The notes under the pieces are model-generated. The model searched no databases. It was not told the origin of the DNA and saw only the letters and a program-made list of their open reading frames with translations. A stretch of DNA of 63,557 nucleotides, filler included, from Reclinomonas americana ATCC 50394 (Eukaryota): assembly GCA_048213135.1 (NCBI GenBank). It is 5 parts of 2 records of this genome, joined end to end, with 100 filler letters (N's around TTAATTAATTAA, not from the genome) between each part and the next. Parts side by side here need not be neighbours in the genome. Positions count along the whole stretch, not along the records: positions 1 to 18,468 come from PS015100.1; 4 more parts are not named here. One strand, written 5' to 3'. The position numbers and the translations under genes were made by a program. Shown here piece after piece: positions 1 to 37,483 of this stretch. The stretch's first letter is position 1. Each line of letters begins with the position of its first letter.

Positions 1-36
1 GCATGTTTGTTGATCTTCTTATTTTATTCTCTGCAG

Positions 37-3000
37 ACCCAAGGTCTTCTCGTCGGTCAGTGCAGTGCAGGCGGCGCTGTGGGCCGCCGAGAAGCGCCTG
101 GAGTCGTACTTCCGTGTGTTGGACGTGGTACCGGATGCCGCCATTGCACTGCTGGCAGAGCTCGGAGACCTGGTGGTGCCGGCTGGTGGCAACGCCACGG
201 CGGCCATCGAGGTGCTGCTCATCCGTTCGGTGCTCAACCAGCTGAAGCCAGACTTGCGCGACCACAAGAAGGACGAAGCCATGCCGTCTTTCGAGGAGGC
301 AGACATTCTGGCGGCGCTCAAGTTTGCCGAGGGCGACGAGAAGGGCGAGAGCGAAGAGTGGCGCAAGTCTGTGCAGGACTGGCTGCTGAAGACCTCGTCG
401 GTGCGCTCGGCGATCGAGTATCTCTTCTCCACCGTCGGTGGCTGTTGCGTTTTGATGGCAGGTCTGTCTCTCTTTTACGCGCTCACCTTCATTTGGGTAC
501 AGCCAATGCGGAGATCGAACTGATTCGTCGCGACTGGCGCCTCATTCGACTCACCGAGCACTTTGTGCGCGATGTGGCATTGTCGATTGGCTTGCCGCGT
601 CGCTTGGTGCAGCTGTTCTGGTTCCGTGCCCCCGAAGCAGTGGCGTTGCCGCCGTCGGTGGGATTGGAGAATACGATGCGCCTGCTCACCCTCCTCAACC
701 GCTACTACGCGCGCAAGGGTGATGAGCACGAGTGCTTTGTGTGCTACAACATCCCGAAGGATGGCGTGCGCACCAAGTGCTGCCATCGAATCATCTGCCG
801 CGAGTGTGCGGTGTCCTGTTTCACGCAGCGTTGCGTGCGCTTGCCGACCGCCGAGCATCTACTAATTGGTCAATCGACTCATTGTGTTCACGCCGGGGGT
901 TTGCAGACATGACCAAGTGCGCGTGGTGCCGCAGTCAGGATCTCATCACCATGGACATCAACTTTGAGGACCTNNNNNNNNNNNNNNNNNNNNNNNNNNN
1001 NNNNNNNNNNNNNNNNNNNNNNNNNNNNNNNNNNNNNNNNNNNNNNNNNNNNNNNNNNNNNNNNNNNNNNNNNNNNNNNNNNNNNNNNNNNNNNNNNNNN
1101 NNNNNNNNNNNNGACGGCGGAAGAGAATCTCTTCTTGTCGCACGAGAAGGAGCGCCTGATGAAGGAGAAGTGCAGGTGCGCACGATGCAACTCCCATGTT
1201 TCTCAGTTGCTCGTGCTGACACCATTTGCTTCCTCCATTTCTCTCAGCTTGCTGATGGAGTTCTACATTGCGCACTTTGTTTTCGAGGCCGGCGACGATC
1301 TCATGAACACGCAGATGATGTCGCTGCTGATTGATCTGGTGAGTGTGGCGCTGTCGCCCTGGCTGTTTCGTCGCTCGAGTCGCTCACTGCTCGCCGGCAG
1401 ATCTCTGGACGCAACTTTGGCGACGAGGAGGCGGCACCGGCGGCGGCCGATGCGGGACGCGGTGGTGCCTCGTTCTTTGCCGACTTTAAGCTCTCCATCT
1501 CCACTCGTGTGTCTGTGCTGCGTCGTCTGCTGAGTGTTGGCAGCAAGGCTGCGGCGGTGGCACCAGCGGCCGCTGGAGTCGCTGGCCACTTCCTCGCCGG
1601 CAGCAGTGCTGCTGGTGGAGGTGCGTCCAATCTGTGCTCGACCACCAAAAAACAATTTGATCTCATTGTGCGTGCGTGCGTGCGTCGGCAGCAGAGTCGG
1701 CGGTGGCTTCGGTCAACGTGGTCAAGCAGCTGTTGGCGGAGCGTGTGGCGGCCGAGTATGCCCACCACGGCGAGAGCTTGTCGTTCGACCTGGCCCTGTT
1801 GTTGGTGCAGGCTGCGGAAGATGAGTGGCACAACAAGCTGCGGTGCGTGATGCAGTCCTGCTATGGCGTACTCGCGTCAGTCTCTTTATCTCCGTGCTCA
1901 CGTGTGTGCACGGGCAGCTCAACATTGATGCAAGAGTGCCGTGGCGACTTTGTGGTGCTGTGCGACACGGTTGTACGGCAGGCACTTGCTCGCGGTCAGC
2001 CGCCCGACATGCCCGACGTGAACGTGCTGGCGCGCCTCAATGCCCCGGCGGCGTTCTCAGCCTTGCAACTCATTGGCTACGTTCGTGCCTTCCTCACCCT
2101 GTACAGCCGTGTGCTCGCTGAGAATCGTTGCGTTTTTTTGGTTTTGTGCGCGTTTCCCACACACCATGCATGGCACACTTGTTTTCTCACTCCGATTGCT
2201 CGCTTCACTGCAGCGGCGGCGTGTGAGGACCCGCGCGTCGGAAGCGTGGCCGACATGGTGTTGAATGTGCCGTTGCCGGCGCAGCGTGCGTGCCGCATGT
2301 TTGTCGTCAAGCAGTGGGAGCGTGCATCGGGCCGCACCGCCGCTCGTGGCATGCTGCAGCGTCTGAAACTGGCCAACTCTGGGTGGGTGACATCGTGGAT
2401 CGAGCACGAGGCGCAGGTGTCGCGATTCGCCACCGGCTCCGCGTCGCTCCCGTCAGATGATCCGTTCCGCTACCGGGTGAGTGTGCTGCCGTGGTGACGC
2501 GATTGTGCAGTATTGTTTTTTTGTCTGACGGTGGTGATCGTCCCAGACGGCACANNNNNNNNNNNNNNNNNNNNCGCCCGCCTGTACACTGAGCTCAGCG
2601 GCGTGTTCTCGGCCGTGCTCAACGACGGCGAGGTCGAAAATGTGCGTGTGTCATTCGACGCCCACGCCGGCGACAGCCACTTTGCCGAGGCGGCGTTGCT
2701 GGCCATCTTCTACCATGTGCACACTGTGTACCTCACGCACCTGTCGCCGTCGCTGTGCGCCAATCTGGAGCGCCTGGCGGAATTCATTCGCACCTGCGAC
2801 GCCCTGGAATCCATGCCGCAAGTGCGTGAGCTGGCTGCCTGCATGGTGGCCAATCGGTTCCCGCATCTGCAGTTGCGATTTGGGGAAAAAGAAATAGTAG
2901 TGCGTGAAGCGGACGAGGAGTCTCGTACTTATGCGCATTATTGTGTGTGTGTGTGTGTGTGTGTGTGTTGGCACTGCAGACGCACTGCGGCACAGGAGCT

Positions 3001-6000
3001 CTTTGAGCTCGGCGAGCACACGACGCTGCAGCACATGCTTCTGCTGCGCGTCATTGTGCACTCAGTGGCGCTGGCCACCATCTATGTCGACGTGAATCCG
3101 TTCGAAACGTTGCTGTGCCACGTGTCGTCGCTGGTGGACCGCTGCCTGTTCACCATGCCGGAAGACGACCGCGCGGCTCTGCAAGGTCTGTTTTGTTGTT
3201 TGCGTAATAATACGTGTGATTAAGCTGGCACTGAGTGCATTCGCATCAGCCGCCATGCCTGGAGGATGGTACGAGTGCCCGAACGGACACACGTACTACG
3301 TCAGTGAGTGCGGTCAGCCGATGCAGCGGTACAATTGCCCCGAGTGCGGCGCCGACATTGGTGGCTCCGACCACGTGCTGCTCGATACGAACAAGAGGGT
3401 GAGGCGTCGCGAGTGTGCTGCGTGGCGATGATCCCTTGTGCTCACGCGAGGCTCCTCTGTTTTCTGTTTTGTCAGATCAATGGCGAGGACCGCAGTCCGG
3501 CGGGCTACGCTCTGCGGCCGGCTGCGCAGGAGTCGGAGCTGTACTTGAGCTATCGTGGCATGCAGCCGTCGTCTCTCCGTGTGCTGCGTATCGTGATGCA
3601 CTCGCTTCTGCTGGCGGCATACGCCACCACAGACCCTCACGTGGTGGCTTTCGAACGCATTGTCAACAACACGTACGGCCGACCACAGGTACGATACAAT
3701 GCAGCCTTCTTTGCCACTCTTGAAACTCATCGCCTTCCTGTGTCTGCGTCGTCAGCGTCCTATCGATTTCTTTGTCGAGCACTTGCGCGGAGACTTCACC
3801 TTGCTTCGACGCATGGTCGACAAGAATGAGGAGGACACGTCGATCTTTGTGCACTTGTCGCTGTCGGCCCTGCAGGCAGAACCATCGTTGCGTCGCCCTT
3901 TTTTTGATTAACAAACGCGTGCGTGTGTCAGTTTATTCACCAAGATCGCCACCACAGCAAATGGGGTGTGGAGTGTTTCACTCGTGAGACACGCAAGCCG
4001 TGGGAGCTGGCCGTGCAGGGCGTGTTGGGCAAGATCTCCAACAACCTGGACGATCATCTGCGCCAGTACCACGCCGCCATGCAGAGCGACGAGGGTGCAC
4101 AGGCTGGTTTCTTCACCGAGGTACGTGTGGCACCGAAGAGAGGCTGTCCGGCGAGCTGTGCACTGACGCGAGAATGTGTTGCACAGGTCACCGAGTCGAA
4201 TCCAGTCATTCGAGAGCCTGCTGGCAGCTTGATCACCGCCATGCGCTTCCGCAAGCACTTCTCCATTGATGACATGCGCACGCAGTTCACCAAGGACGGT
4301 GCCAACATCCAGAGCTTCCCGATTTTGAGTGCCATTCTCACCAGGAAGGAGCACTTTGACTGCGTGCGGTACGTACCGTCCGTCCGTTGCACGCTCCGTG
4401 CTACCAATCACCTCACCTGCTCATCTCGTAGGTTCTTGTACTCCACCATTCGCTGGTACCAGTTGGTGCTCAATCGCTTCAACCGCAAGATTGAGCGCGA
4501 CTTTGCTCGCGAGACCACCATTGGTTCCGTGATCATGGGCATCGAGTCGGATGCCGACCGACAGGGTTGCGTCTTCACTATTCTCGATCGCACATTGGTT
4601 GGAAAAAAACGTGTCATTGACGCGCCATGTTTTTTCGTTATTTTGTTTGCGCAGTGTGGCAAGAGTCATTTGGAGGCTTTGCGGCTGCGTGGCGCGCCGG
4701 CTGGGCCAATGTCGATCGGTACGGCTGCTTGGAGATCCCGCCGCCGTACAAGGCCACCGAGATGGGGCCGAACACGCCGCTCTCGTTCTGCACCGCCAAC
4801 GAGAAGGACGAATCGATCTGCATGTTGGCCATCTTGCGCCACTTGGTCGACAAGCACAACGAGATCATTGAGGCGGCCACCACCTCGCAAACGCGCGCTT
4901 TCAAGGCCGAGCAGCTGAAGTGTTGCGTGCACAAATCACAACCGCCTTTCGTGTCTGTTGGCACTCACCGCTGCCGTGTCACAGTGTCGACNNNNNNNNN
5001 NNNNNNNNNNNGCCGACCATCACCAGTCGCCAGATGGATCCGAGCCACGTGGTGGCCTACGATTTCGAGGGCGAGATTGCCAGCTTTGTGCAAGATCACT
5101 GCACTGTGTCGCTCAAGTATGGCGATGGCGGCACTTTGTTCTACGACTTTGCCGCCATTGAGCAGTTCATCATCGACTCGTTCGTACACTCGCGCTGCTT
5201 GCGTTTTATTTCTCTTGCGTGTGACTCACTGTATGCGCCGTCAGCTACTTTGCCGGCAAGCCGCTCATCCAGCTGGAGATTCGCGTGTTCGATTTTATCG
5301 ACGAGCAGCGCAGCGTTGGCGGCTTGCAGAGCCTGCGCACCAAGTTGGCTCAGATGGAGCTGCCGTCGGGTGCGTTTTTTTTTTCTCGTGTTCTTGTGAG
5401 TGGCGATGCCGATCCCTCGCACACGCAACGCGTCTGCGTAGATGTGCGCGATCGCATTCGTCTCGAGCTCGGCTCAACCGACAATGCACGTGTGGCACGT
5501 CGCATCATCGAGACTGTCATCAGCTTCGTGCAGGCCACAGGTGGTACGATGGTACAGCGTCTCGAGGACCAGGCTGGTGAGCAGCTGGTGTTCGACTACG
5601 TGCGCGATGTGCTGTTGATGTCCGACGGCGTCGACGTGCTCGGCACACCGACACTGTCGGCGGTGGTGCGCCTGAAGCATCTCATCTCGCTGTTCAACCT
5701 CGTCGAGGTACTGTCGCATATGTTGCTGTGGTATGGGAGAGGACGAATGGTGTTTATGCTGACGCTCCTCTTTCGTGTGTGCTTCGTGCAGAGCATGCTC
5801 GTCAGTAATCCGATGATGGATGTGCGGCCGAAGGTTGATGGCTGATTCTGTCACCGCTTTTCGTCTCTGCATTCCGCTCACCTATGCGTGTGTGCGTGTA
5901 CCCTACAGTACAAGGAGCCTCTAACGGAGGATCAGGCGACGGAGCTCAAATCGGCATGTGCAACCATGGACACGGCGCTCTTGTCGACGTCCATGCGCGA

Positions 6001-6276
6001 GTTCGCCATTGACACTCTGCGCGAGGACACACTGGGCACGGCGCAGTCGCTCAAGCTCGTTCTTTCGTACGTCGAGACGAGCGACAATTCTGGTGCGCCA
6101 TCATCCCCCCCGCCTCCGATCCCTGTCCTTCACGCACTCACTGCTCTGTGCGCCGAACAGGTCGTACGTTTGTCGACTTTGGCTGGTTCGATCGCTTCCC
6201 GGAGTCACTGACCATGGCCAACTGGGTGTCGGCGTACGAGCTCGTCTTGGCGATGCACAATGGCCGCGAGGACTGA
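37..6276 (+). CDS. RNF213: RNF213/mysterin-like E3 ubiquitin ligase, C-terminal part (RING, RZ finger, CTD); multi-exon, 5' end outside window
   Basis: RING CFVC..CCHRIICREC..KCAWC at about 734-930. RZ finger WYECPNGHTYYVSECGQPMQRYNCPECGADIGGSDH at about 3267-3375. Downstream segments resemble the RNF213 C-terminus (YDFAAIEQFII..YFAGKPLI). About 20 GT-AG introns splice in frame to TGA at 6274-6276. Confidence 0.85.
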
Positions 6277-6522
6277 GAGGATAGTGAGGTGTAAACTTCT
6301 TTCGATGACTTACCGTGCATGCACCAACACTTGTGCACATTGGCAATATCGCACACCCACCTGCACGATGATTGCGACGAGTGCAGACGAACCCCACCGT
6401 CTACTCTGCAAAGGCAACACTATCACGAGTACTCAGTTGCCACGAGCAGTCCGTCCGCACCCATCGCCGGCTTCATTGACAGGATCTTTCGTGTCCGGCG
6501 TGCTGGAAAAATCTTGTCATAA

Positions 6523-6670
6523 ATGCGTCGGAGCGGAGGTCGTGCGCCTATCTTCGATGAGGTCAAGCAGCAGTACGATGAGGCTAAGCGGCACTACGAC
6601 AGTGGTGACTATGCCACCGCCGCACCCCCCCTCGCTCGCTGCATGCGCGACTTTGAGGACTTGCGCGCGC
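6523..6670 (+). pseudogene. Truncated 5' relic of the TPR-kinase-RING gene family
   Basis: MRRSGGRAPIFDEVKQQYDEAKRHYDSGDYATAAPPLARCMRDFEDLR aligns with the N-termini at 6900 and 37483; homology then stops and the frame closes at 6747. Confidence 0.75.
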
Positions 6671-6899
6671 GGTTCGATGCATGCATGGATCACGACCTCG
6701 ACCTCGATCGTCGAGCTTGTCGATCTGTCGCGCATGTGGGATCATAAGCACTTCTCCATGTTTGTACTTCGCTTGGCGATGGGTGATCTGCGCAACGTGT
6801 GTCGATATTACAGCCTCTTCTTGAGTGAACTTCGAACTGTCTGCCAATACATGTCAAAAAAGTCCTTTTGTGGTTATCGTCCGGCGTGTGTTTGTCGTC

Positions 6900-9800
6900 A
6901 TGCAACGACGCGAAGGCCCGACGCCGAGTTTCGATGAGATAAGGCAGCAGTATGATGAAGCCAGACGGCTCTGCGACAGCGGTGATCATGCCACTGCCGC
7001 ACCCATTCTCAGTTCCTGCCTAAGAGATTTTGAGGACTTGCGCGGCCCTGACGACGACGCGACTCTTGTGTGCGCCTTCAAGTATGCGGTCGCGCTCCGC
7101 GAGTCGGGAGACACGCAGAGCGCATTGTCGCTGTTCGACGATGTGCTGGAGAGGAGGAAGCGTCTGTTGGGCGCGACTCACAAGAGAACGTTGCAGACAG
7201 CTTTCAACAAGGGTCGCACACTTGTGGCACTCAAGTGGTACGACGAGGCCATTGCATTGCTGCGCGACACGGCGGCGAAGCAGGAACGCTACGTGGATGA
7301 AGGTGATCAGGAGGTGTTGGATACGTTACACTGTCTGGCTTTCGCGCTCGTCGGTAACAGGGAGTACGAGGAGTCAGTTCGAGTCTCGCGTGACGTTGTG
7401 CGCCGGAGACGTGAAGTGTTGGGTGCGGATCACCCTGCAACACTGACGAGCATGCACAATATGGCATGCGCACTGGCCGATGCAGGTGGCTTGACCAATC
7501 TGGAGGAGGCTTTGCAGATCTACGAGGAAGTCTTGCCGCTTCGTCGTCGCGTGCTGGGGCCGAACCACGTGCACACCCAGCACACTGCCGACAACCTTTC
7601 CGAAACCCAAGCAGAGCTGGCCGTTGCGCGGCGACGTCGTGACGCTGCACGCATATTCCGTGCGTATCCTTGCATCATGCTTCGTGTTTATGCGCTTGTA
7701 CATGTTGACGGTTTTGCGTGATGCGCAGCGCCTTCGAGGTCTTCAGCCTCTGCGTACATCGCACCACCACATACACCGCGGCCAGTGCACCGCTCGCCAC
7801 CAGTGTACGACGCACCGCCAGCGTTCGGCTCTCCTCCGGCAGCAGCAGCATACGTCCCTCCACCAGTGCTACCTCAAGCCCCAGCTGCAGCATTCGCCGC
7901 TCCTGCAGCGTACGGCTATCCTCAAATGTACCCACCACCAGTGTACGACGCACCTCCACCGTACCAAGCACCCCCAGTGTTCTCCCCGGCTCCACGAATG
8001 GCTTACCCGCCGGTGAGGAATGACAACATTATTGATGCTATGTTGACGCTCATCGAGATTGAGTGCAACAGCCACCGCAAGTGAACTCGGGCCGCGAGCA
8101 GGAGCTGGAGGCGACTATTGCACAACTGCAACGCGACCTGACGGAGCAGCGAGCGACAGCACAGCAGCAAGATGCCACGATTGCGCAGGTGCTGGATGAG
8201 GCGGACGTGCAGCAGGCGGCTGTCCGCGAGCGAACAGCTCAAGTGGATGCATTGCAACAGCAAGTGCAGCAACATGAAGCCACCATTGCGCAGCTGAGGC
8301 GGGAGGTAGAGGAGCAGCGGCAGCAGCAGCAGACGGCTGTCCGCGAGCGAAATGCCCAAGCGGATGTGTTGCAGCAGCGCGTACAACAACAAGATGCCAC
8401 CATTGGGCGATTGCGGCGCGAGGTGGAGATGCAGCGGTTGCATGTGCAGCCACAGCGAGAAGCCGCGGTGCAGCGCTTGCGCGAGGAATGTGCGGCTCTT
8501 CGAGTCTCCTTGGAGCGAATGGACGAGCAGCGGCAGCAAGAGTACGACCGCGCACAGCGACTGGCCGCTGATTTGGCCGCCGCGCAGCACGAGCTCAACC
8601 ATCGTGGTGAGTGCGAGTGAGTGTGCGGCAAAGATTGCTTGTGCTCATGTGCAGCTTTGCAGTTCCACTGACGGTCTTTTCGTGGAGGCAAATCGGCGCC
8701 ATGACAAATGGCTTTGCTCGTCGTCTTGGCGTGGGTGGACAGGGAAGCGTGTTTTCTGGCGCGTGGAAGGAGCAGCAGGTGGCCGTCAAAGTGTTCGACA
8801 GCGATGCGCCGTGGTGCATCGAGTCGTTCTCCAATGAGGTGAGAGTATTCGTGTGGGGAGACCTGGCCATGGTGATCATCGCATTTTGTTTACCGTTATT
8901 TGCTGGGTGCAGTTGGAGAAACTAAAGAATGTGATGGTGCCTGGCGTGGTTCGCATTATTGGGTTTGCCGAGTCTGACCGTGGTGAAAAGTGCATTGTGC
9001 TGGAGGCCATGAGGTTGGTGGATATTGCGTATTCCTGCTGGTTGCATGCAATTCTTCTGGCACGTTGTTGCTGATGCACTGTCTTTCTCTTGATCATTCT
9101 CAAGCGAGCACAACCTCGAGCACCGGTTGTTGGAGTATCAAGCACTCGGATTGTCCGTCATGGCCATCGAGGAACGGATGACATGCCTGCTTCGCTGTTC
9201 GGAGATCGTGGCGGCATTGCACAGGTGAGGCAGCGGATGAAGTGGGAAGTCGGGTGCTTGTGGTCGTTTCTCATCATCTCTTGTTGTACAGGATGGTTTG
9301 TGTTACTGTCGTGCTACTTGATGACGTCGTTTCTCACTCCCCTTCCCTCTCACTGTCACTGCTTTCTGTTCTCGCCTTCACCCAGAATGGTGAGTCTCCG
9401 TGAACTCGGTTGTGAGTGATTTGACCTCGCTTGTTAACCATGATTCGCAGTCATTCACCGCGACCTGAAGCCCGCCAACATCCTGTTTGACGAGCGTGGC
9501 CAGGCGTGCATCTCGGACCTGGGAATCGCGCACTGGTTCCGCACCGCCGGGGTGAGTGTGCACTCTCTCTTCCCTCGCCTTCCCACCGATAATATACTCA
9601 TGAGTGCACGTGTGGCGACAAGCAGACACACCTGTCGGTGCAGTTTGCAGGCGACCACGACTATGCCGATCCGCAGGCACTGCGTGGCATTCTGCGCCCG
9701 ACTGCCGACGTGTACATGTACTGCCTCGGACTCATTCTGCTGCAACTATTCTCCAGTCAGCCGATTGCCGAGGTACACAAGTGGATCGAGGGAATGGTGG

Positions 9801-10282
9801 AGGACGACGACGCGGCGAGACTCGATGAGGCCGCTGTGCTGCTGGCCGACGCCGCGGTCGGCCGGGAATGGCCCACTTCCGTCTGTCGCCGTCTTGTGCG
9901 GTTGGCCATGCGGTGAGTAGTAAGCATCAGCCCCGTTGCATATTTGCACTGCGTAGGTTTCCCTCAGAATTCGAGAAACAGATGTGTCGACCATCGACCT
10001 AATCGCCGACCGAGTGCCGACGAGCTGGTGGCCGAGATGCGCGATCTCACTGCGTTGTCGTGCCGTCGCGCCTGCGTTCTCTGTTATGATGTGCGCGAAA
10101 CTCGACTGCGTCCGTGCGGACACGAGGTGGTGTGCCGCAACTGTGCGCAGCAAGTGGTCGAGCGACGTGGCAAATGTCCTCTCTGTCGCACCTCGGTCAC
10201 TCGCTTCGACTCGGGAGATGAGTACGGCTATCACACACTTGTGCTGGCGCCGCCGTCAGCTGCGGCCGCCGCGAGCCCGTGA
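6900..10282 (+). CDS. TPR (kinesin-light-chain-like) - Pro-rich - coiled coil - IRAK/Pelle/RLCK-like kinase - RING protein, paralog A
   Basis: TPRs of about 42 aa (LGxxHPxTL). In-frame GT-AG introns link them to a Pro/Tyr-rich exon, a Gln-rich coiled coil and a kinase (FSWRQI..TNGF..LGVGGQGSV, VAVK, HRDLKPAN, DLG, DVY), then a RING CVLC..PCGH..CRNC..CPLC; stop at 10282. Confidence 0.8.
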
Positions 10283-10355
10283 TGACTGTTGGCAAGTGCA
10301 AACATGTAATTACAGATTTCATTTGGCAAGAATCTCTCTCTCTATCTACTCTCGT

Positions 10356-11075
10356 CTACTGCGTGCAGCTGTCAAACGGAGACTGACTGCAGGTGGCACC
10401 ACTGTAGCTGCCGCAGCAGTTGCCGTTGCCGAGGTGAGTGCTGGTGCCGGGGCACGAGGCGGTGCCAGCGGCCACGGCGGGGTAGTTGTTGCAGGCGTAG
10501 TGGCACTGGCAAGTCAGATCGACCGTGCAGTAACCGTGGTTGTTGCATGCGCCGGGGGCATCAGTGCACACCGGCACCGGCGGCCACGCAGCCGGGAACG
10601 GCGAGTTCTCGCAGTGGCTGCCCGACCAGCTGCCGCAGCAGTTGCCTGTGAGGGAGAGAGAGAGGGAGGAGAGTTGAGTCATTGCGGAAATGGAGCAGAG
10701 GAGCAGACAAGTGACAAACCGTTGCCAGCATTGTCGGTGCCGGGCGGGCACACGGCAGTGCCGAGGGCCACCTGCACGTAGTTGACGCAGTTGTAGTAGC
10801 AGGCGCAGGTGAGGTCGGGCTTGCAGAAGCCGTTGCTGTTGCAGGCACCCGGCTCGTTGGTGCACACGGCGACTGGCGGCCACACGGCGGGGAAGGGAGA
10901 GACGTCGCAGTTGGCGCCCGAGTAGAAGCCGCAGCAGTTGCCGTTGGTGAGGTCGCTGGTGTTGGGTGGGCACGAGGCGGTGCCGAGGCGCACAGCGTCG
11001 TAGTTCTTGCAGGTGTAGGCGCACGAATCGGCCAGTGCGACGGCCACACAGACGGCCAGCACGGCGACAAAGAGG
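10356..11075 (-). CDS. Secreted cysteine-rich 74-aa repeat protein with EGF-like elements, copy A; start codon lies in the gap
   Basis: Signal-peptide-like LFVAVLAVCVAVALA, one intron, near-identical to 33007-33744. Confidence 0.85.
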   Translation of the reverse strand, partial: PLCRRAGRLCGRRTGRFVRLHLQELRRCAPRHRLVPTQHQRPHQRQLLRLLLGRQLRRLSLPRRVAASRRVHQRAGCLQQQRLLQARPHLRLLLQLRQLRAGGPRHCRVPARHRQCWQRFVTCLLLCSISAMTQLSSLSLSLTGNCCGSWSGSHCENSPFPAAWPPVPVCTDAPGACNNHGYCTVDLTCQCHYACNNYPAVAAGTASCPGTSTHLGNGNCCGSYSGATCSQSPFDSCTQ

Positions 11076-11487
11076 NNNNNNNNNNNNNNNNNNNNNNNNN
11101 NNNNTTATGGCCTTTTCCCGAATTCGATGTGCCGTGTACGATCGCAGAAAACGCTATGCGTCTATGCAAGTGCGTCAAATCCACTGGTCAACCACGCTTA
11201 TGCGGTGAAGATCGCAGTTCTCGACTTGTTCGGAGCTCCGAGAGCGAACACACACACACAAGGAACCTGCTGCTGCCTCAAGATTGGTGTCTGTGTTGAT
11301 GTTTTGGATACGGCTGAACTTGGTCATCAAGACAGCTGTTGCTTGTTTGTTGGTGAATGAATTGTTGTTGTTGTTGCACTCCGTGGTGACACAGACAATC
11401 ACTTCCGTCAACGCTCGTGTGCCCGTGTGTTTGGGCGCTGTGCTCACAGACTCTTGACGAAAACAATCACGATTGATATTTCTTGGT

Positions 11488-12176
11488 TTACAGCGGATGT
11501 TCTTCATCGATTTCGTCGTCCCCGGGCGTCAGCGACTGCGCGCGTGCGATTCGGATTTGGAATTCGACTTTGAGCAGATTGGATCGCGCGGCTGCCAGCT
11601 CGGGGTCAATAGCCAAGGCACGCTCAAGCGACTGCCTGGCCATGTGAAGATCTCCTTGCCCGATGTAGACGAGCGCCACGTTGTTGTGTGCCTGCGACGA
11701 GGAGTATTGAGACCACGTCGAGGTGTCGAATCAGCATGGTACACGCAAACGAAACTACAGCATTGTCGGGCTCCTTCTCCAGACACCGTCTGAAGGCCTC
11801 CATGGCGTCCTCGTAGAGGCCTGCGGGCAAGTGTCGATGTGAGACGGCAGACACATGCGTGGGAAAGAGAGACAATATTCGCACCTTGATGTCGCAGCAG
11901 GTTGCCAAGATTGTTCTGAATGGAGGGTCGTGCATCGAGCTCGAGAGCCTTGTTGTAGACCACACCGGCCTCTTGAAGCTCTCCATTGAGGTGCATGGCC
12001 AGGCCTACGAACACGGGGGAAATGTGAGAGAATAAATCAGCGCAGTAAAACGCCGATTGTACACCACGTACCGAGATCGCTCCACACAATCGGCGACAGC
12101 AGATCACGCAGTACGGATTGTTTGAAGAATTCCGCGGCCATGTCGTACGCGCCTTCCGTGAGGCACAGCATGCCCA
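11488..12176 (-). CDS. 3' exons of a TPR protein, probably the continuation of the gene at 12719 / 16820
   Basis: TPR motifs IQNNLGNLLRHQ, YEDAMEAFRRCLE, HNNVALVYIGQG..ALAIDPELAAARSNL; stop at 11488. Confidence 0.7.
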
Positions 12177-12293
12177 GCTAAACATAACAACTGCGTGAGA
12201 AAGCATGACGCACAACANNNNNNNNNNNNNNNNNNNNTCTCCTCCTCCTCCTCCTTCCTTCTCTCTCTCTCTCTCTCGTCTCTCCTCCTCCTC

Positions 12294-12347
<54 letters not shown>

Positions 12348-12436
12348 AGTGTGCAAGAGGTAACAATGCAGACCGCGGACGAGCAGCATTCTCTCTTACT
12401 CTTTTCTCTTTCTCTCTGTGTGTGTTGTTGTATGTA

Positions 12437-12537
12437 CCCATGGAAGGCGCAATGAGTGTGGGAGCATCGTCGCCGGCGAACCCGGCCTTGCACGAGTCCG
12501 ACCCAAAGTCAAAGATCACTGTGAGCTTCTCGTCCAT
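12437..12537 (-). CDS. First exon of actin-related protein (duplicate of 18214)
   Basis: MDEKLTVIFDFGSDSCKAGFAGDDAP is the actin phosphate-1 motif. Confidence 0.8.
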
Positions 12538-12718
12538 TTTGTGCTGTTGTCAGTGACAGAGAGAGAAATGGGGGAAAGAGAGAGAGAAGGAGAGCAGTTA
12601 GTGCATAGAGAGAAGGTGGAGGGACGAGAAGGAGAGAGCATCATTCAGGCATACCTCGCCTCACACCTGTGTTATTCCGTCGACCGGCACTCTGCCCACT
12701 TCGCTTCAATTGCGCCCA

Positions 12719-15052
12719 TGGACTTTCTCGGCTGCGATGAACCCCCCGTGGGCTCTCCCACAGCAGCAGCAGCCGCATCACGTGCGAGCAAGTCATCATC
12801 GACTGCAATGGTGTGTGTGTGTGTGTGTGTGTGTTTGATCGATCACCACCATGCCCACTCTTCTCTCGCACGCACAGCACGTGGACTCCACTGGTGCGCG
12901 TCGTGCCACTGCTGCACAGAAGAAGCGCGCGCGCGGGAGCACACGACACGACGATGACGATGACGAAGAAGATGATGACTTTGATGATGATGATGATGAT
13001 GCAATGCACGAGGACGACGACGACGATGACAGTGGCGAGTACGATGATGATGCACCAGTGGTCAAGCGATCGCGACGTGCATCAGCAGCAGCAAAGAAGA
13101 AGAGTGGGAAGAGTGGGAAACGAGGAGGCGGAAAACGCGCAAGTGCCTCTGCCTCTGTGGCGGCGGCCACGGTGAGTGCGACCAGTGAGGTGGCATTGGC
13201 GTATCCCGAGGCCGAGGGAGACGCGGGACCGGTGAGTGAAGAAGCGTCTTCTTGTGTAGTTGTGTGTGGTGACTGACAGCTGTGCGCAGGAGCGGTGAGC
13301 ACAAGCCCGGTGACGTTGTTGTTGGTGTTGAATAGACAGATGGTGACATGTAGTGTGCGCAGTGTCGATTTGGATGTGTATGAGGCGCGTCTGGCAGTGG
13401 GAAGATCGCGATCACTCAAGAAGGTTTTCTTCCTCTCGCGAGCGCGCGTCCGCTGCTGCTGCTGCTGCTGCCGACGCGCGTGTGTTTCTGCGTAGGTGAT
13501 TGAGCATGCGGCGAAGAAGCATCCGGGCAGCTGGCGATCGCAGTTTGCGTTGGGATTGTTGCATATTCGACTGGGTGATGCGGAACAGGTGCGTGCGTGT
13601 ATTTGCTGCGTTGTCGAGCATGGGAACTGAGTGAGACACGCAGGCGCAAGCGGCGTTTACGCGGGCCAAGGCGGCGTTTGCCAGTATGGTTGCGAAAGTG
13701 GTGGAGGTGCAGCGGCGGCAGGTACGCTCTCCCCCAGCCCCCGATTGAATGCCTGGCGCTGTCGCTCCTCACTCCGTGGTGCAGCATGTGCTGAGTGCGC
13801 TGCCGTCGGAGTTTGTGGCGCGCCTTCCGCCGCGGTTGCAGGCGCTCGAGGCCATGCTTGACAATCACCTGGCGCAGGCACAGGCCATGCACGGTGCCAG
13901 TGGAACTGTGTTGCAGAGTGTGCAGCAGCAGCTCACGGCCGCCACGAGAGTTTCGTGCAACAATCAATCTATGGATCCCCTTTCCTCTCTTACCGGCGTG
14001 TTGCCTCCTCCCGCCCGCAGAAAGACAATGGCCAGCCGGACATTTGGAATAATCTTGGCCTGTTGCATCTGAATGCCTCCAAGTGGGAGGGCGCCAAGAC
14101 CATCCTCACTCCGATCCACAAAATCTTCCCCGAATACTACGATGCGGTCACCAACTTGGCCCTGAGCTACTTTGGTGCCATGGACGTTGCGTCTTGTGAA
14201 GCGCTCTCCAACCCATCGACGACATGCGTCGCTGACAGCCGAAGAAATTGTGTGCCGTCGCAGTTCGAGACGGCCACTAAGTTGTACCAGGATGTGCTTC
14301 TCAGCGATCGCCAGCATCTGGAGGCACTGAGCAACTATGGCGTACTATTTTTGCGACAGCGTCTGTTACGTGGAGAGAGAGAGAGAGAAAGCGAGCGTGC
14401 GCGCGAGTGGGAGGTTCACTTACCGGTCGCTGCACAGGTTTCCGTACGCTGTCTCCATCTTTGAGGATGCACTCGAAGTCAATCCGCGCTCCGCCTACGT
14501 GTGGAACAATCTGGGCGTGTCCTACAGGTTTCTCAATCGTCTGCAAGATGCGCACGACTCGTTCGCCAAGGTGCGTTGTTATTTCGCAGTTCGTACTGGT
14601 GACAGCTGCTCATCTCTTGCGGCAGGCGGCCAAGCTAGAGACCACGGACGAAGTGCGACACATTATTCTCGTGAATCAGGCCTCGGCACTCGTCGGACTC
14701 AGCAGGTTCGACGAGGCCGAGGTCATTTACGAGCAAATTCTGGAGGCCACTGAACGTCGCTCGGCGCATGCGCTCATCGGCCTCGCGAGGGTGCGCTGCG
14801 TGTTTCGTTGCCGCTCAATACTTTGTATTGGCTAACTGTATCGAACAGTTGCGTGCACGGCGACAAGAGGAGCTGCTGCAGAGCGACGGCAAGACAGACG
14901 CCACTGACGCGCTTGCCGCACAAGGTGTGGTGTTGTCTCTCTTTCTCTCTCTCTCTCGGTGTTTCCTTACTCTTGCTTGTGCGAATACAGCGCTGGCAAC
15001 CTACATGGAGGCGTCTCGGCTCAACGACAAGGACTTTTATCCGCTGTTCCAG
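12719..15052 (+). CDS. TPR protein with acidic/basic low-complexity N-terminus, 5' and middle exons (copy on contig 12238-15077)
   Basis: PDIWNNLGLLHL, YDAVTNLALSY, EALSNYG, AYVWNNLGVSY; in-frame splicing includes a 5-nt exon at 13290-13294. Confidence 0.75.
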
Positions 15053-15097
15053 GTGACACATACGTCCCTATGCTCTGNNNNNNNNNNNNNNNNNNNN

Positions 15098-15168
<71 letters not shown>

Positions 15169-15171
15169 CGC

Positions 15172-16820
15172 AACAGACGCTGTCGCAAAAATAGTACGCC
15201 ATAGTTGCTCAGTGCCTCCAGATGCTGGCGGTCGCTGAGAAGCACATCCTGGTACAACTTGGTGGCCGTTTCGAACTGCGACGGCACACAATTTCTTCGG
15301 CTGTCAGCGACGCATGCAGTCGATGGGTTGGAGAGCGCTTCACAAGACGCAACGTCCATGGCACCAAAGTAGCTCAGGGCCAAGTTGGTGACCGCATCGT
15401 AGTATTCGGGGAAGATTTTGTGGATCGGAGTGAGGATGGTCTTGGCGCCCTCCCACTTGGAGGCATTCAGATGCAACAGGCCAAGATTATTCCAAATGTC
15501 CGGCTGGCCATTGTCTTTCTGCGGGCGGGAGGAGGCAACACACCGGTAAGAGAGGAAAGGGGATCCATAGATTGATTGTTGCACGAAACTCTCGTGGCGG
15601 CCGTGAGCTGCTGCTGCACACTCTGCAACACAGTTCCACTGGCACCGTGCATGGCCTGCGCCTGCGCCAGGTGATTGTCAAGCATGGCCTCGAGCGCCTG
15701 CAACCGCGGCGGAAGGCGCGCCACAAACTCCGACGGCAGCGCACTCAGCACATGCTGCACCACGAAGTGAGGAGCGACAGCGCCAGGCATTCAATCGGGG
15801 GCTGGGGGAGAGCGTACCTGCCGCCGCTGCACCTCCACCACTTTCGCAACCATGCTGGCAAACGCCGCCTTGGCCCGCGTAAACGCCGCTTGCGCCTGCG
15901 TGTCTCACTCAGTTCCCATGCTCGACAACGCAGCAAATACACGCACGCACCTGTTCCGCATCACCCAGTCGAATATGCAACAATCCCAACGCAAACTGCG
16001 ATCGCCAGCTGCCCGGATGCTTCTTCGCCGCATGCTCAATCACCTACGCAGAAACACACGCACGTCGGCAGCAGCAGCGGACGCGGAGACGCGCGCGAGA
16101 GGAACAAAACCTTCTTGAGCGATCGCGATCTTCCCACTGCCAGACGCGCCTCATACACATCCAAATCGACACTGCGCACACTACATGTCACCATCCTGTC
16201 TCTTCAACAACAACATCACCAGGCTTGTGCTCACCGCTCCTGCGCACAGCTGTCAGTCACCACACAACAACTACACAAGAAGACGCTTCTTCACTCACCG
16301 GTCCCGCGTCTCCCTCGGCCTCGGGATACGCCAATGCCACCTCACTGGCCGCACTCACCGTGGCCGCCGCCGAGGCAGAGGCACTTGCGCGCTTTCCGCC
16401 TCCTCGTTTCCCACTCTTCCCACTCTTCTTCTTTGCTGCTGCTGATGCACGTCGCGATCGCTTGACCACTGGTGCATCATCATCGTACTCGCCACTGTCA
16501 TCATCATCGTCGTCGTCGTCCTCGTGCATTGCATCATCGTCATCATCATCAAAGTCATCATCTTCTTCGTCATCGTCATCGTCGTGTCGTGTGCTCCCGC
16601 GTGCGCGCTTCTTCTGTGCAGCAGCAGTGGCACGACGCGCACCAGTGGAGTCCACGTGCTGTGCGTGCGAGAGAAGAGTGGGCATGGTGGTGATCGATCA
16701 AACACACACACACACACACACACCATTGCAGTCGATGATGACTTGCTCGCACGTGATGCGGATGCGGCGGCTGCTGTGGGAGAGCCCACGGGGGGTTCAT
16801 CGCAGCCGAGGAAATCCATG
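15172..16820 (-). CDS. Second, near-identical copy (likely other haplotype) of the TPR protein 5' exons
   Basis: Reverse-complement match to 12719-14370, differing by SNPs and repeat lengths. Confidence 0.75.
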
Positions 16821-16827
16821 AGCGCAA

Positions 16828-18093
16828 TTGAAGCGAAGTGGGTAGAGCGCCAGTCGACGAAAACACCACGGCCCACTACACCACAACCACATGCACGACT
16901 GAAGACGCCTTCCTTACGCAGCTCCGAGTCACTATGGGTGCCTCTCCCTCTTACGGTGAGTGTTGCATCGATCTCTTTCTCGCACACACACACACTCACT
17001 TTACACATCGCAGGCAATCTCAATCCGCTGCACCTTGCCACCATAAGAGAGTGAGTGAGTGCGTGACGCAGACGATGCATGCACGTTGCTCAGGCGTTGA
17101 CATTGTGTAGATGCCTGATGCACAACATCGAGGCCACCTTGCGCAAGTACAGAAAGGTATGCAACTGATGCTCGTGTCTGCGTCGCTCTTCCTGCTGCTG
17201 AGCATTCGCGCAGGTTATCAAGCTGACACCTCGCGGAAGCGCGGAAGAACGCAGTGTCCATGAGCTTGAACGCATTCTCACGCGACTGCGGCACCACCAC
17301 CATCGAATATCGGAGCGCGAGTGGCGCCAGGTGTGTCAGCAAGTGCTGCAGGCGATCAACCAGCTTCAACGCGTGCTCCCTGCCGAGTCCACGGTTGATT
17401 TCAACTCCGAGGCCAGCTCGTGTGCCTCGTGTGTCGTTGATCCTCCCGAGAGCGACGACTCCAGTGACGCTGGCCTTGAGTCCAGCGGCGAGGAGTCGGA
17501 CGATTTGCAAAGTTGGGGCGACGACGCCGGCCACCCACGAGGTTCTGATGAGCGTCGCTGATGCTGTGGGTCTCTCCCTGCGCACTGACACGTACACTAT
17601 AGAACCTGTCGATTTGACGCCGCCCCGACTTCGCGGTCGCAAGTCGGTGTCGACGGAGATTCAAGTCGGGTCTCGCGGTGGCCTTTTCTTGGAGGTCGAG
17701 TCCAAGAAAACCGGTCGCCAGTACACTTGCTATCTAGCCGCCGGTGAACGCGCGGTCGTTGAGTCGTGGATGAAACAGTACTTTGAGCGACAAGCAGCTG
17801 CTCTGGTCTCGAGCGATCTGATCGATCCTGCTGCTGGTGCGGGTCTGTCGCAGTAAGGCGTGAGTACAAGTGACACGGTGTAATAGTCAAGCATGCAGCG
17901 AGTTGCACGCTGTGAGTCCGCTCTTCCGATATCGATTGAAATCTGATGCAAGCGCGCGCCCTTTTCCCTCCACGATGGCCGCGTTATGAGATGTGCGGAA
18001 GACAGCAGCATTCGTGAAGAAAACCACTGCAGTGACCGTCTTTCCTGGTCAGTTGAAGCGAAGTGCGGTAGAGTGCCAGTCGACGGAACAACA
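16828..18093. repeat. Imperfect direct repeats of about 38 bp (16828-16866, 18053-18093) bracketing a 1.2-kb segment
   Basis: TTGAAGCGAAGTG(C)GGTAGAGYGCCAGTCGACG occurs at both ends; the other copy has a single version at about 12670-12710. Confidence 0.7.
16934..17856 (+). CDS. Hypothetical 5-exon protein on a segment present in only one of the two copies
   Basis: Exons splice in frame through four GT-AG introns: MGASPSYG-NLNPLHLATIRE-CLMHNIEATLRKYRK-VIKL...HPR-EPVDL...GSRGGLFLEVESKKTGRQY...stop. Confidence 0.6.
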
Positions 18094-18213
18094 CTTTGTG
18101 AGGCGAGGTATGCCTGAATGATGCTCTCTCCTTCTCGCCCCTCACCTTCTCTCTATGCACTGACTGCTCTCCTTCTCTCTCTCTTTCCCCCATGTCACTG
18201 ACAACAGCACAAA

Positions 18214-18402: not shown

Positions 18403-18468
<66 letters not shown>

Positions 18469-24514: not shown

Positions 24515-24557
<43 letters not shown>

Positions 24558-33809: not shown

Positions 33810-36800
33810 TCATACTCGAACGGCTGCCGCGGCAGGTGGTTCTGGCACAAACGCGTGGAAGCCGAACTCGTCTCCTGATTCAAAACGGGCGACCGAGGTG
33901 CGACAGAGAGGACACTCGCCGCGACGGTCGACAACTTGCTGCGCACAATTGCGACACACCACCTCGTGTCCGCATGGATGCAGTCGAGTGTTGCGCACAC
34001 TGTAACAGAGAACACAGGCACGACGGCACGACAATGCAGTCAGATCGCGCAACTCGGCCACCATGTCGTCGGCACTCGGGCGGCGATTGGGTCGATAGTC
34101 GACACAGCTGCAGCACCCCGAACCATGAGGGAAATGAATGACAATGTGCAGGGAGCAGCTCACTCACCGCATGGCCAAGCGCACAAGACGCCGACTGACA
34201 GATGTCGGCAACCCCCGACCGACCGTGACATCGGCTAGTTGCACAGCGGCCTCATCGAGTCTCGCCACGTCGTCGTCCTCCACCATTCCCTCAATCCACT
34301 TGTGCACTCTTGCAATTGGCTGACCGGAGAACAGTTGCAGCAGAATGAGTCCGAGGCAGTACACGTCGGTGCTCGGGCGCAGAATGCCACGCAGTGCCTG
34401 TGGATCAGCATAGTCGTGGTCGCCGGCAAACTGCACCGACAGGTGTGTCTGCTTGTCACCACACGTGCACTCATGAGTATATTATCGGTGGGAAGGCGAG
34501 GAAGGGAGAGAGCATACTCACCCCGGCGGTGCGGAACCAGTGCGCGATTCCGAGGTCCGAGATGCACGCCTGGCCACGCTCGTCAAACAGGATGTTGGCG
34601 GGCTTCAAGTCGCGATGAATGACTGCGAATCATGGTGAATAGGCGAGGTCACATCAACTACAAACGAGCTCACGAAGTCTCACCATTCTGGGTGAAGGCG
34701 AGAACAGAAAGCAGTGACAGTGAGAAGGAAGGAGAGTGAGAAACGACGTCATCAAGTAGCACGACAGCGACACAAACCATCCTGTACAACAAGAAACGAT
34801 GAGAAACGACCAAACGCACCTGCTTCTCATTGCAGCTGTCTCACCTATGCAACGCCGCCACGATCTCCGAACATCGAAGCAAACACGTCATCCGTTCCTN
34901 NNNNNNNNNNNNNNNNNNNTGAGTGTGCGGCAAAGATTGCTTGTGCGCTCTCGCTCATGTGCAGCTTTGCAGTTCCGCTCACGGCCTTCACCTGGGAGCA
35001 AGTCGGCGCCATTACAAATGGCTTTGCTCGTCGTCTTGGCGTGGGTGGACAGGGAAGCGTGTTTTCTGGCACGTGGAAAGAACAAGGGGTGGCTGTGAAG
35101 GTGTTCAACAGCGATGCGCCGTGGTGCATAGAGTCGTTCTCCAATGAGGTGAGCGCTGCGTGTGTCGAGAACAGGTGATCATCGCATTGTGTTGATAATT
35201 GTTTGTGCGGCACAGTTGGAGAAACTGAAGAGTGTGACGGTGCCTGGTGTGGTGCGCATGATTGGTTTTGCCGAGTCTGACCGTGGAGAAAAGTGCATTG
35301 TGCTGGCGGCCATGAGGTTTGTGGAGATCGCGTATTCTTGATTACGTGCAATTCTGGTCATTCTCCTGACCATTCTCAAGCGAGCACAACCTCGAGCACC
35401 GGTTGTTGGAGTATCAAGCACTCGGATTGCCCGTCATGGCCATCGNNNNNNNNNNNNNNNNNNNNNNNNNNNNNNNNNNNNNNNNNNNNNNNNNNNNNNN
35501 NNNNNNNNNNNNNNNNNNNNNNNNNNNNNNNNNNNNNNNNNNNNNNNNNNNNNNNNNNNNNNNNNNNNNNNNNNNNNNNNNNNNNCTCGCACTCACCACG
35601 ATGGTTGAGCTCGTGCTGCGCGGCGGCCAAATCAGCGGCCAGTCGTTGTGCGCGGTCGTATTCTTGCTGCCGCTGCTCGTCCATGCGCTCCAAGGAGACT
35701 CGAAGAGCCGCACATTCCTCGCGCAAGCGCTGCACCGCGGCCTCTCGCTGCGGCTGCACATGCGAGAGCGCAGTGCGCAGCTGGTGTATTGTGGTCTGGT
35801 TGGCGGCGAGTGACTGACGCAGGTTGACCACAGTGGTCTCCATCTCACGAGCACGGTTGTACCAGCCCGTAGCTCCTGTTTCTTGAAGCTGTGCGTGCGC
35901 TCGTTGCTCCTCCAGCTCCAGCTGCAGGCTTCGACCAGTCGCTTGTGCTGCGCCCACTTGAGCGGTCAACTGCACAACCTGTCGCCGCTGCTCCTCCGCC
36001 TCGCGCCGCAGCTGCGCAATGGTGGCCTCGTGTTGCTGCACTAGCTGCTGCGCGGCATTCATCTGCGTGGTCCGCTCGCGAACTGCGGCTTGCTGCGCCT
36101 CCAGCTCGCGACGCAATTGGGCGATGGTGGCTTCGTGTCGTTGAGCCTGCTCTTGCGACGCATCCACTTGGGCAGTCCGCTCGCGGATAATTGCTTGCTG
36201 ATCGTTCTTCTCGCGTTGCAGTTGCGAAATAGTGGCATCGCGACGCTGCACTCGCTGCTGCGCTGCATCCACTTGAGCGGCCAGCTCGCGGACCGCCGCC
36301 TGTTGCTCTTCCACCTCACGCCGCAGTTGCGCGATGGTTCCTTCGTGTTGCTGTGTCGCCGCTCGATGTTGCGCCAGGTCACGCTGCAGCTGGGCGATGG
36401 TGGCCTGCGACTGAGACTGCTCGCTGCGAAGCGTGGTCAACTCTCGCGTCTGTTGCCGCACAAGGCGCTGCTGCTCTACCAGATCGCGTTGCAGTTGTGC
36501 GTTTGCTGCCTCCAGCTGCTGCTCGCGGACCGAGTTCACCGGTGGCGGCTGGTTGGTGCACGTGAGGTAAGTGTCGGGCAAGCATCGGAACTTGTCAGTT
36601 TTCTCTCACCAGAGAACGCACTGGCGGGGGAGTGGACGCAGAAGCAGAGGAAGCTGCAGTCGCGGATGAACAACTAAAGTGTGGAGGATGAATCATAAGT
36701 GTGCGTCACTGACGTACCAGATGGGGAGGTCGTCGACGTAGTCTTGCGGAGTGCCGCCAGCTTTGCACGGGTGTTGGTAATGTGGTCAGCCGTGGTTTTG

Positions 36801-37483
36801 GTGCGTTCGTGATCCTGTCCCAGCACGCGGCGTTGCAGAGGCAACACCTCTTCATAGATCTGCAAAGCCTCCTCCAGATTGGCCAAGCCCCCTGCTTTGG
36901 CCAGCGTATACGCCATGTTAAACATGCTCATCAGCGTCTTGGGGTGATCCTCGCCCAACACCTGGCGTCTCCGGCGCACAAGGTCACGTGAAATTTGAAT
37001 CGACTCCTCGTACTCCTTGTTCTCATACAGTGCCGCGGCCAAGTGGTGCCACGTATTCAACGCATCCTCGACGTCCTCCTTGGCCCCGTAGCGCTCCTGC
37101 TTCTCCGCCGTGTCGCGCAGCAACGCGATGGCCTCGCGATACCGCCCGAGCTTCCTCAGCGCATTGCCTGTCTCAGCAGCCGCATTCAATGTCTCCTTGT
37201 GAGTCGCACCCAACACGCGCTTTTCCCTCTCCAGCACATCCTCGAGCACCGGCAGTGCGCTCTGTGCATCTCCTGCATTCAAGAGTGCATTCGCGTACCA
37301 CGCCACACACGAAAGCGTCCACTCATTGTCGGGTCCGCACAAGTCCTCAAAGTCTCGCATGCATCGAGCGAGGAGGGGTGCGGCGGTGGCATAGTTACCA
37401 CTGTCGAAATGCTGCAAGGCCTCATCATACTGCCGCTTGACCTCCTCGAAAGTCGGCGCAACACGACCTCCGCTCCGGCGCAT
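33810..37483 (-). CDS. TPR - coiled coil - IRAK/Pelle-like kinase - RING protein, paralog B; kinase N-lobe contig 34920-35445 is assembled on +
   Basis: Same exon series as 6900-10282, including both 4-nt exons; longer coiled coil and shorter Pro-rich exon. Confidence 0.8.

Follow-up and report, generated by a model that had tools for sequence, protein, structure and literature searches.

A candidate TPR, coiled-coil, IRAK/Pelle-like kinase and RING gene with an inverted paralogue in Reclinomonas americana

Does a locus of the Reclinomonas americana ATCC 50394 genome in which TPRs, a proline-rich linker, a coiled coil, a protein kinase and a RING follow one another on the same strand encode a single protein and, if so, would that protein be an innate immune receptor, as an initial annotation of the sequence had proposed? 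We examined positions 6900-10282 (+) of a 63,557-nucleotide (nt) window, by which we mean the whole stretch of DNA that was analysed: five parts of two records of assembly GCA_048213135.1 joined by filler, with positions 1 to 18,468 taken from PS015100.1. The interpretation that we favor, with a probability of roughly 0.6, is that the locus comprises a single gene of several exons, whose paralogue lies 23 kb away in the window, and which encodes a cytosolic TPR/coiled-coil/kinase/RING protein of ~890-920 amino acids (aa), in which the kinase is of the IRAK-Pelle-receptor-like-kinase (RLK) type. The surrounding sequence is eukaryotic in character, with ~57% G+C, short GT-AG introns and many scaffolding N runs.

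To delineate the domains, Pfam scans were run on each open stretch translated separately, not on the spliced model, and exons were joined at canonical GT-AG sites preserving the frame (Table 1). A tblastn search of the exon translations against the window located an inverted paralogue (copy 2) with 60% identity to the locus (copy 1) in the TPR domain, 52-54% in the coiled coil, 86-100% in the kinase exons and 81% in the RING exon. The presence of the same domain order in both copies indicates that the arrangement is not due to chance and, together with the single-exon Pfam matches, bears out the order of domains given in the initial annotation. The comparison also lends support to the predicted architecture, from TPR to RING, as one gene. 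Between copy 1 and copy 2 the length of exon 1 changes by 6 nt, that of exon 2 by 240 nt and that of exon 3 by 417 nt; each of these differences is divisible by three (exons 2 and 3 of copy 2 measure 44 and 952 nt), and the two copies use identical splice phases. The spliced N-terminal part of copy 2 runs for 587 codons with no stop, and contains no methionine between residues 190 and 433, a stretch of 243 codons that comprises the whole linker and ~160 codons of the coiled coil, so that a gene beginning downstream of the TPR would lack an initiator codon for this stretch. The ratio of nonsynonymous to synonymous substitution rates (dN/dS) between copies is lowest in the kinase (0.16), followed by the RING exon (0.20) and the TPR (0.32) and, as judged by this pairwise comparison, every domain is under purifying selection. 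The TPR and kinase-RING parts therefore probably belong to a single gene, and we infer their splicing into one mRNA from the comparison of the two copies.

Table 1. Positions in the window of the predicted exons of copy 1, of the alternative short exons, and of the related sequences.
Feature	Position	Strand	Content
Exon 1	6900..7659	+	ATG and KLC-type TPR domain, 253 aa; donor C/GTGCGT, phase 1
Exon 2	7729..8012	+	Pro-rich low-complexity linker, 94 aa, PPVY and PPPY motifs; read from the sequence
Exon 3	8072..8606	+	Predicted coiled coil, 178 aa, Q/E/R/A-rich, 39-aa repeat
Exon 4	8663..8838	+	Pre-kinase motif FSWRQIGAMTNGF, G-loop GVGGQGSV, VAVK, alpha-C Glu; aligned with relatives
Exon 5	8913..9013	+	Kinase beta4-beta5 and hinge; 88% aa identity to copy 2; aligned with relatives
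Exon 6	9105..9224	+	Kinase alphaD-alphaE, terminal ...EIVAALH; donor AG/GTGAGG, phase 2
Candidate exon 7 (uncertain)	9292..9389	+	98 nt, frame-restoring; 32-aa insert ahead of HRD
Alternative micro-exons	9386..9411 (26 nt), 9386..9399 (14 nt), 9292..9299 (8 nt)	+	GT-AG, restore the frame
Exon 8	9451..9551	+	Catalytic loop IHRDLKPAN and DLG; 100% aa identity to copy 2
Exon 9	9626..9912	+	Activation segment (YADPQALRG) through alphaH
Exon 10	9982..10282	+	Kinase subdomain XI (HRPNRRPS), C3HC4 RING, conserved tail FDSGDEYGYHTL, stop 10280-10282
Paralogue, copy 2	33810..37483	-	Same domain order; from tblastn of exon translations against the window
Third-copy relic	6523..6667	+	First 48 codons of the TPR exon; diverges thereafter, stop 6745-6747

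Exon 1 matches the Pfam families TPR_12 (5.3e-32), TPR_10 (1.3e-29) and TPR-S (4.2e-7), and all 16 of its PDB matches at E ≤ 1e-5 are TPRs of the kinesin-light-chain (KLC) type, from KLC1, KLC2 and a Podospora KLC-like protein (best 2.7e-12), in line with the type assigned initially. A protein search with this exon recovered bacterial and fungal TPR proteins only, at no more than 38% identity, and no protein of this genome. The nearest long relatives (26-38% identity) are bacterial Ser/Thr-kinase-TPR, NB-ARC-TPR, TIR-TPR and CHAT-TPR proteins and fungal NPHP3-like proteins, which fits the earlier remark that this TPR type occurs in fungal and bacterial NLR-like proteins. The TPR is also the most diverged domain between the two copies, with 59% aa identity versus 91% for the kinase. 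The linker encoded by exon 2 matches no Pfam family; in copy 1 it carries PPVY twice and PPPY once, which we take to resemble the PPxY ligands of WW domains, and these motifs are absent from the 15-aa linker of copy 2.

Exon 3 yields only weak coiled-coil matches in Pfam. It is built on a 117-nt tandem repeat present 2.0 times (105 nt, 3.5 times, in copy 2) and, by a crude count of our own, 50-75% of its heptad a/d positions are hydrophobic in long constant registers. Structure modeling of two chains predicted a parallel, in-register dimer with a score of 0.42, the best of three controls scoring 0.00; the individual runs scored 0.00, 0.43 and 0.42, at least 2% of contacts agree and the predicted local confidence (pLDDT) of the partner is at least 59. 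Of proteins with solved structures, 21 of 30 homomers but 0 of 23 single chains attained 0.42; among eukaryotic proteins 17 of 29 did so, yet just 1 of 7 that lacked an older solved relative. The model thus supports, but does not show, dimerization through the coiled coil.

Kinase hallmarks retained in both copies are the G-loop, VAVK, the alpha-C glutamate (SNELEKL), IHRDLKPAN and SDLG, and by these residues the domain appears catalytically intact and is predicted to be active. Individual exons contribute unequally to its classification. Pfam identifies exon 8 as Pkinase (8.6e-8) and assigns exon 4 to PK_Tyr_Ser-Thr at 0.034; against the PDB, the N-lobe exon gives weak TKL-group matches (BMPR1B, TGFBR1, SYMRK, BRAF; all E ≥ 0.026) and the catalytic-loop exon generic ones, neither being discriminating when taken alone. 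For the C-lobe exon (exon 9), all 30 PDB matches at E ≤ 10 are to IRAK4 (best 8.4e-4), PBL2 or ScRIPK-type kinases, and its alignment with IRAK4 has Y..P.ALRG...P..D.Y..G..LL in common. In the Atlas, this exon lies nearest to PK_Tyr_Ser-Thr clusters whose commonest taxon is Streptophyta, which we regard as a lead only, and a protein homology search with it, restricted to longer proteins, found nothing at E ≤ 1e-3. In exon 9 of copy 1 the DVY..G motif, where helix F begins, is also interrupted by two extra residues (MY) that occur neither in copy 2 nor in ten aligned relatives.

The last exon matches Pfam zf-C3HC4_3 (2.8e-10), with zf-RING_UBOX staying under the cut-off (0.0086), and its eight zinc ligands, C-x2-C-x10-C-x-H-x3-C-x2-C-x10-C-x2-C, are invariant in both copies. 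For the beginning of this exon the acceptor at 9981 was preferred to one at 9975, which copy 2 lacks. A profile of this exon built from the two copies (A2) was searched against 1.84 billion representatives and returned 696 proteins at E ≤ 1e-3; the analysis covered the best 150 of them, with 2 cluster-mates added for the alignments (152). A hidden Markov model (HMM) of the relatives' kinase, built from 10 of the 32 proteins it detects, finds a kinase domain in 32 of the best 150 (E ≤ 1e-5), and the joined model of the window protein scores 148.7 bits on it. Unbroken alignment from kinase to RING with the joined model (from query position 700 or before to 890 or beyond) was obtained for 18 of the 152, at 24-31% identity, the best being P0131 (E 7e-34, 29% identity, kinase and RING). 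Pfam scans of 30 relatives identified a kinase together with zf-C3HC4_3 in 27, the RING of P0229, with 25 families listed, being counted from the profile search and alignment instead; the other three comprise one alpha-kinase-RING protein and two RING-only fragments. Upstream of the shared module the relatives carry ankyrin (Ank; P0182, P0190), WD40 (P0272, P0229) or leucine-rich (LRR; P0255) repeats, a UBA (P0228) or CUE (P0203) domain, or nothing recognizable, and in P0141 Arm repeats are located after the RING. P0255 is Capsaspora owczarzaki XP_004347679.1, with the UniRef name 'TKL/IRAK protein kinase'; the remaining nine relatives that were looked up derive from transcript-sized contigs.

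The consensus of 13 relatives resembles that of receptor-like kinases (L..AT..F, G.GGFG.VY, HRD.KS.N.LLD, SDVGLAR, GT.GY.DPEY, DVFSFGVVLLELLTG). The pre-domain motif of the window protein aligns with the L..AT..F element, and the conserved post-RING tail of the relatives, D.G.F..TF, is common to the window protein. When a profile of the 13 was compared with the PDB, the first 52 matches were all IRAK4 or plant RLKs at 250-287 bits (IRAK4 286), among them FERONIA, IRAK4, ScRIPK, Pto, BIK1, BRI1, BAK1, SYMRK, PBL2 and CERK1, ahead of the first other kinase, EGFR, at 243 bits, and of CTR1 at 196. This ranking and the PDB matches of the C-lobe exon support the IRAK/Pelle/RLK affinity (TKL group) put forward initially, and the predicted kinase is IRAK/RLK-like. 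The predicted gene as a whole is a very divergent member of a kinase-RING family of unicellular eukaryotes, with a new TPR-coiled-coil front end. The initial annotation had recognized no precedent for the architecture; this holds for the front end, which was not found elsewhere, but not for the kinase-RING module, which is already in databases (e.g. XP_004347679.1). We found no description of the protist kinase-RING family in open-access full texts. Protists were already known to possess IRAK-like kinases: one study reports five of them in Phytophthora infestans (PMC3019232), and another infers, from a kinome tree spanning the eukaryotes, an IRAK4-type kinase, often duplicated, in the last eukaryotic common ancestor (bioRxiv 10.1101/2020.01.27.920793).

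The history of the two copies is uneven along their length. Both lie within an inverted segmental duplication (6922-11075 versus 37458-33024), and synonymous divergence (dS) between them is 0.95 in the TPR (dN 0.30), 0.30 in the kinase and 0.58 in the RING exon, with near-identical introns in the kinase part. This unevenness points to a 3' half that has been converted or is younger, and not to diversifying selection on the TPR. The relic upstream of copy 1 has 67% aa identity to TPR residues 1-48 (tblastn) and, at the nucleotide level (blastn), 86% identity to the 5' end of copy 2 versus 78% to the adjacent copy 1. Since it is closer to the distant copy than to its neighbor, the segment 6523-6747 is, on these alignments, the relic of a further duplication or rearrangement. 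Three N-lobe exons of the copy 2 kinase run in the opposite direction within a 526-nt contig (34920-35445) flanked by N runs at 34900-34919 and 35446-35585, which looks like a scaffold misorientation and not biology. A Cys-rich gene lies tail-to-tail with each copy in the same segmental duplication (10356-11104 (-) and 32964-33429 (+); ~89% nt identity); its hydrophobic N-terminus resembles a signal peptide and it matched no Pfam family. Another inverted duplication, 12279-14395 versus 18468-15144, is 92-96% identical around an N run and contains weakly TPR_11-like open reading frames (ORFs); near-palindromes of this kind may be assembly artefacts.

Several observations weigh against the interpretation of the locus as one gene for such a protein. 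The joining of its exons is predicted from genomic sequence, and one junction requires an extra short exon for which several candidates fit, the frame otherwise breaking before HRD. At that site, ten aligned relatives have ~5-12 residues and lack the 32-aa insert that the longest candidate would encode, and the relatives' kinase HMM skips the corresponding 98 nt in the joined model. No TPR was detected in any of the 30 relatives scanned with Pfam, and the N-terminal 527 aa of the model have no match among the 152 relatives, so that the TPR fusion is seen only in this window. The class of the kinase is assigned from sequence searches, and in the tree that was inferred, which is unrooted and holds 17 rows of family members only (15 of the 32 kinase-bearing relatives, with the uncertain short exon and split junction codons omitted), a very long stem, of 2.6 substitutions per site, leads to the window kinase and, there being no outgroup, the tree cannot place it inside or beside the family. 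In addition, the APE motif reads DPQ, with glutamine in place of glutamate, Pfam does not recognize the C-lobe exon, and one of the three dimer runs scored 0.00.

The problematic junction was examined on both copies. Exon 6 ends in phase 2 and the HRD-containing exon 8 requires phase 1, a mismatch that calls for a short exon with a length of 2 modulo 3 within 9225-9450. Splicing 9224 directly to 9451 was rejected, as the frame shifts and a stop is met, and the single spliced frame described in the initial annotation cannot pass directly across this point. Enumeration of GT-AG short exons free of stops in both copies produced several options. The 98-nt candidate has the strongest splice sites and leaves flanking introns of 67 and 61 nt, versus 56-91 nt elsewhere in the gene; it is 96% identical and gapless between the copies, versus 81% and 82% in its flanks (Fisher P = 9e-4). 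Its composition is intron-like (GC 0.50, T 0.38), which counts against its being an exon, and it would place 32 mostly hydrophobic residues (Kyte-Doolittle hydropathy, KD19, 1.83) between helix E and the catalytic loop. The micro-exons of 26, 14 or 8 nt would yield normal loop lengths, and leave unusual introns of 151-161 nt, plus others of 39-51 nt for the 26- and 14-nt options.

Taken together, the predicted protein is most likely a cytosolic enzyme with dual kinase and ubiquitin ligase (E3) function. It is considered cytosolic because its N-terminus is hydrophilic and its only hydrophobic peak is the doubtful insert. The TPR groove would bind a partner or client peptide, the coiled coil would keep two chains in register, and the paired kinases could then trans-autophosphorylate, with phosphorylation tuning a RING E3 that would ubiquitylate the bound client, a further substrate or the protein itself. 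Dimerization and both enzyme activities are predictions, and the coupling of kinase to E3 is predicted by analogy with plant PUB33. A preprint on PUB33 describes a dual kinase and E3 that is regulated by autophosphorylation and homomerizes (bioRxiv 10.64898/2026.02.10.704836).

The proposal that the protein is an innate immune sensor lacking a NOD domain, whose TPR recognizes a microbial or viral ligand and whose kinase-RING module triggers defense, is in our assessment unlikely. Its most suggestive support is that the relatives swap Ank, WD40 and LRR repeats on one kinase-RING module. The TPR is of the TPR_10/TPR_12/TPR-S type and counts NB-ARC-, TIR- and CHAT-TPR and fungal NPHP3-like proteins among its relatives, it is the domain in which the copies differ most, and the locus has been duplicated and rearranged, giving two copies and a relic; moreover, immunity in animals and plants involves IRAK/RLK kinases and RING or U-box E3s. 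Against this, positive selection on the TPR was rejected, as dN/dS is 0.32 overall and 0.16-0.48 across nine sliding windows, and the higher TPR dS (0.95 versus 0.30) is what an older split, or gene conversion of the 3' half, would produce. The window shows just two copies, the same TPR type is also found in kinesin light chains, as a cargo adaptor, and in bacterial kinases, and relatives with UBA or CUE domains suggest a general role in ubiquitin signaling. The broader notion that unicellular eukaryotes hold a family of one-chain, NOD-less receptors, in which interchangeable TPR, LRR, WD40 and Ank sensors on an IRAK-like kinase-RING module sense microbes or viruses, strikes us as very unlikely; were it true, an IRAK plus TRAF6/Pellino-type module would be fused in one polypeptide, and the duplicated locus would be one receptor cluster.

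It is likewise quite unlikely that the locus comprises two genes, one for a small TPR-only protein, with an ORF reaching a stop at 7719-7721, and another, downstream, for a coiled-coil-kinase-RING protein. The TPR ORF does stop 60 nt past the proposed donor, the copy 1 linker has in-frame Met codons at residues 320 and 344, and both the lack of TPRs in the relatives scanned and the genomic basis of the exon joining would suit such a division. The agreement of GT-AG sites and phases between copies at three junctions, despite length differences of 240 and 417 nt, and the ATG-free 243 codons of copy 2 argue for the single gene instead. That the pair are decaying duplicates, with a genuine frame break between 9224 and 9451 and no translation of the kinase-RING part, would account for the stop met on joining exons 6 and 8 directly and for the intron-like 98-nt segment, but is highly improbable given that the exons past the break have dN/dS of 0.16-0.20, that catalytic and zinc-binding residues are intact in both copies, and that several in-frame GT-AG short exons are common to both.

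The surroundings of the single predicted gene were also inspected. The RNF213 gene that the initial annotation had placed just upstream was not reproduced: among seven upstream ORFs the sole Pfam signal of this kind was a RING below the cut-off (1.1e-3), no RNF213 chain was among the PDB matches of three of them, and the Atlas offered no usable match for the upstream ORF. Solved RNF213 structures exist in the PDB. The upstream gene could still be a distant RNF213 homologue. The ORF upstream of copy 2, at 37796-38812 (-), encodes a RAMA domain (Pfam PF18755, 1.2e-9), indicating that the neighborhood is not conserved between copies. Elsewhere in the window, an exon of sterol 24-C-methyltransferase (42640-42930 (-)) has a best database identity of 61%, which suggests that the protein collection holds no close relative of the host. 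Long, low-complexity CT/GA-rich tracts with strand asymmetry at about 24000-27900, 44900-47500 and 57200-58400 translate as SLSLSL or RERERE, and microsatellites and N runs are numerous.

Kinase and E3 functions in one chain are rare, and their biochemistry has only just begun in plants, with PUB33. The results presented here suggest that protists, too, possess IRAK/RLK-type kinases fused to a RING, and that this module is joined to repeat domains of several kinds. If these repeats are sensors, the family would show coupling of phosphorylation and ubiquitylation in early eukaryotic signaling, possibly in defense; if they are not, the protein would still offer a tractable dual enzyme for studying phosphorylation/ubiquitylation crosstalk.

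Among known systems, the closest to the window protein are the kinase-RING proteins resembling Capsaspora XP_004347679.1. The likeness extends from L..AT..F through the kinase to the C3HC4_3 RING and the tail D.G.F..TF; the relatives read DVG or DLG at the DFG position and, as in the window protein, have their RING at the extreme C-terminus. They differ in that none combines TPRs with a Pro-rich linker and long coiled coil, in their low identity (24-31%), and in the possible insert before HRD of the window protein. IRAK4/Pelle kinases resemble the window kinase in the C-lobe, IRAK4 being the best solved match of that exon. IRAK proper has an N-terminal death domain, whereas no such family was found on any exon of the window protein (Pfam, E ≤ 1), and IRAK recruits TRAF6 or Pellino in trans, whereas here a RING is predicted to be fused to the kinase.

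Other systems resemble the protein in part. STAND/NLR-like and bacterial kinase-TPR proteins have the same TPR_10/TPR_12 (and TPR-S) type. Unlike in NLR/STAND receptors, Pfam found neither NB-ARC nor NACHT on any exon, and bacterial Ser/Thr-kinase-TPR proteins have the kinase first and the TPR last. Kinesin light chain likewise joins this type of TPR to a coiled coil, but its heptad region precedes the TPR, the reverse of the order seen here, and it has no kinase or RING. Plant KEG, plant RING-kinase-WD40 proteins and animal MAP3K1 combine a kinase and a RING-type domain in one chain; in KEG and the RING-kinase-WD40 proteins the RING is N-terminal to the kinase, and kinase subfamilies and partner domains differ.

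The plant PUB-VI/RLCK-IXb proteins (PUB32, PUB33 and PUB35, among others) offer the nearest functional parallel, with an IRAK/RLK-type kinase, a long alpha-helical and possibly coiled-coil domain ahead of it and a C-terminal E3. The analogy with RLCK-IX drawn in the initial annotation is upheld by the layout given in the PUB33 preprint, namely USP, alpha-helical domain, kinase and U-box (bioRxiv 10.64898/2026.02.10.704836). Exon 3 supplies the counterpart of the long helical or coiled-coil domain before the kinase, but the E3 of the plant proteins is a U-box and their N-terminus a USP, where the window protein has a zinc RING and TPRs. Given these mismatches, we take the likeness to be functional only, and the two kinase-E3 fusions may have arisen independently.

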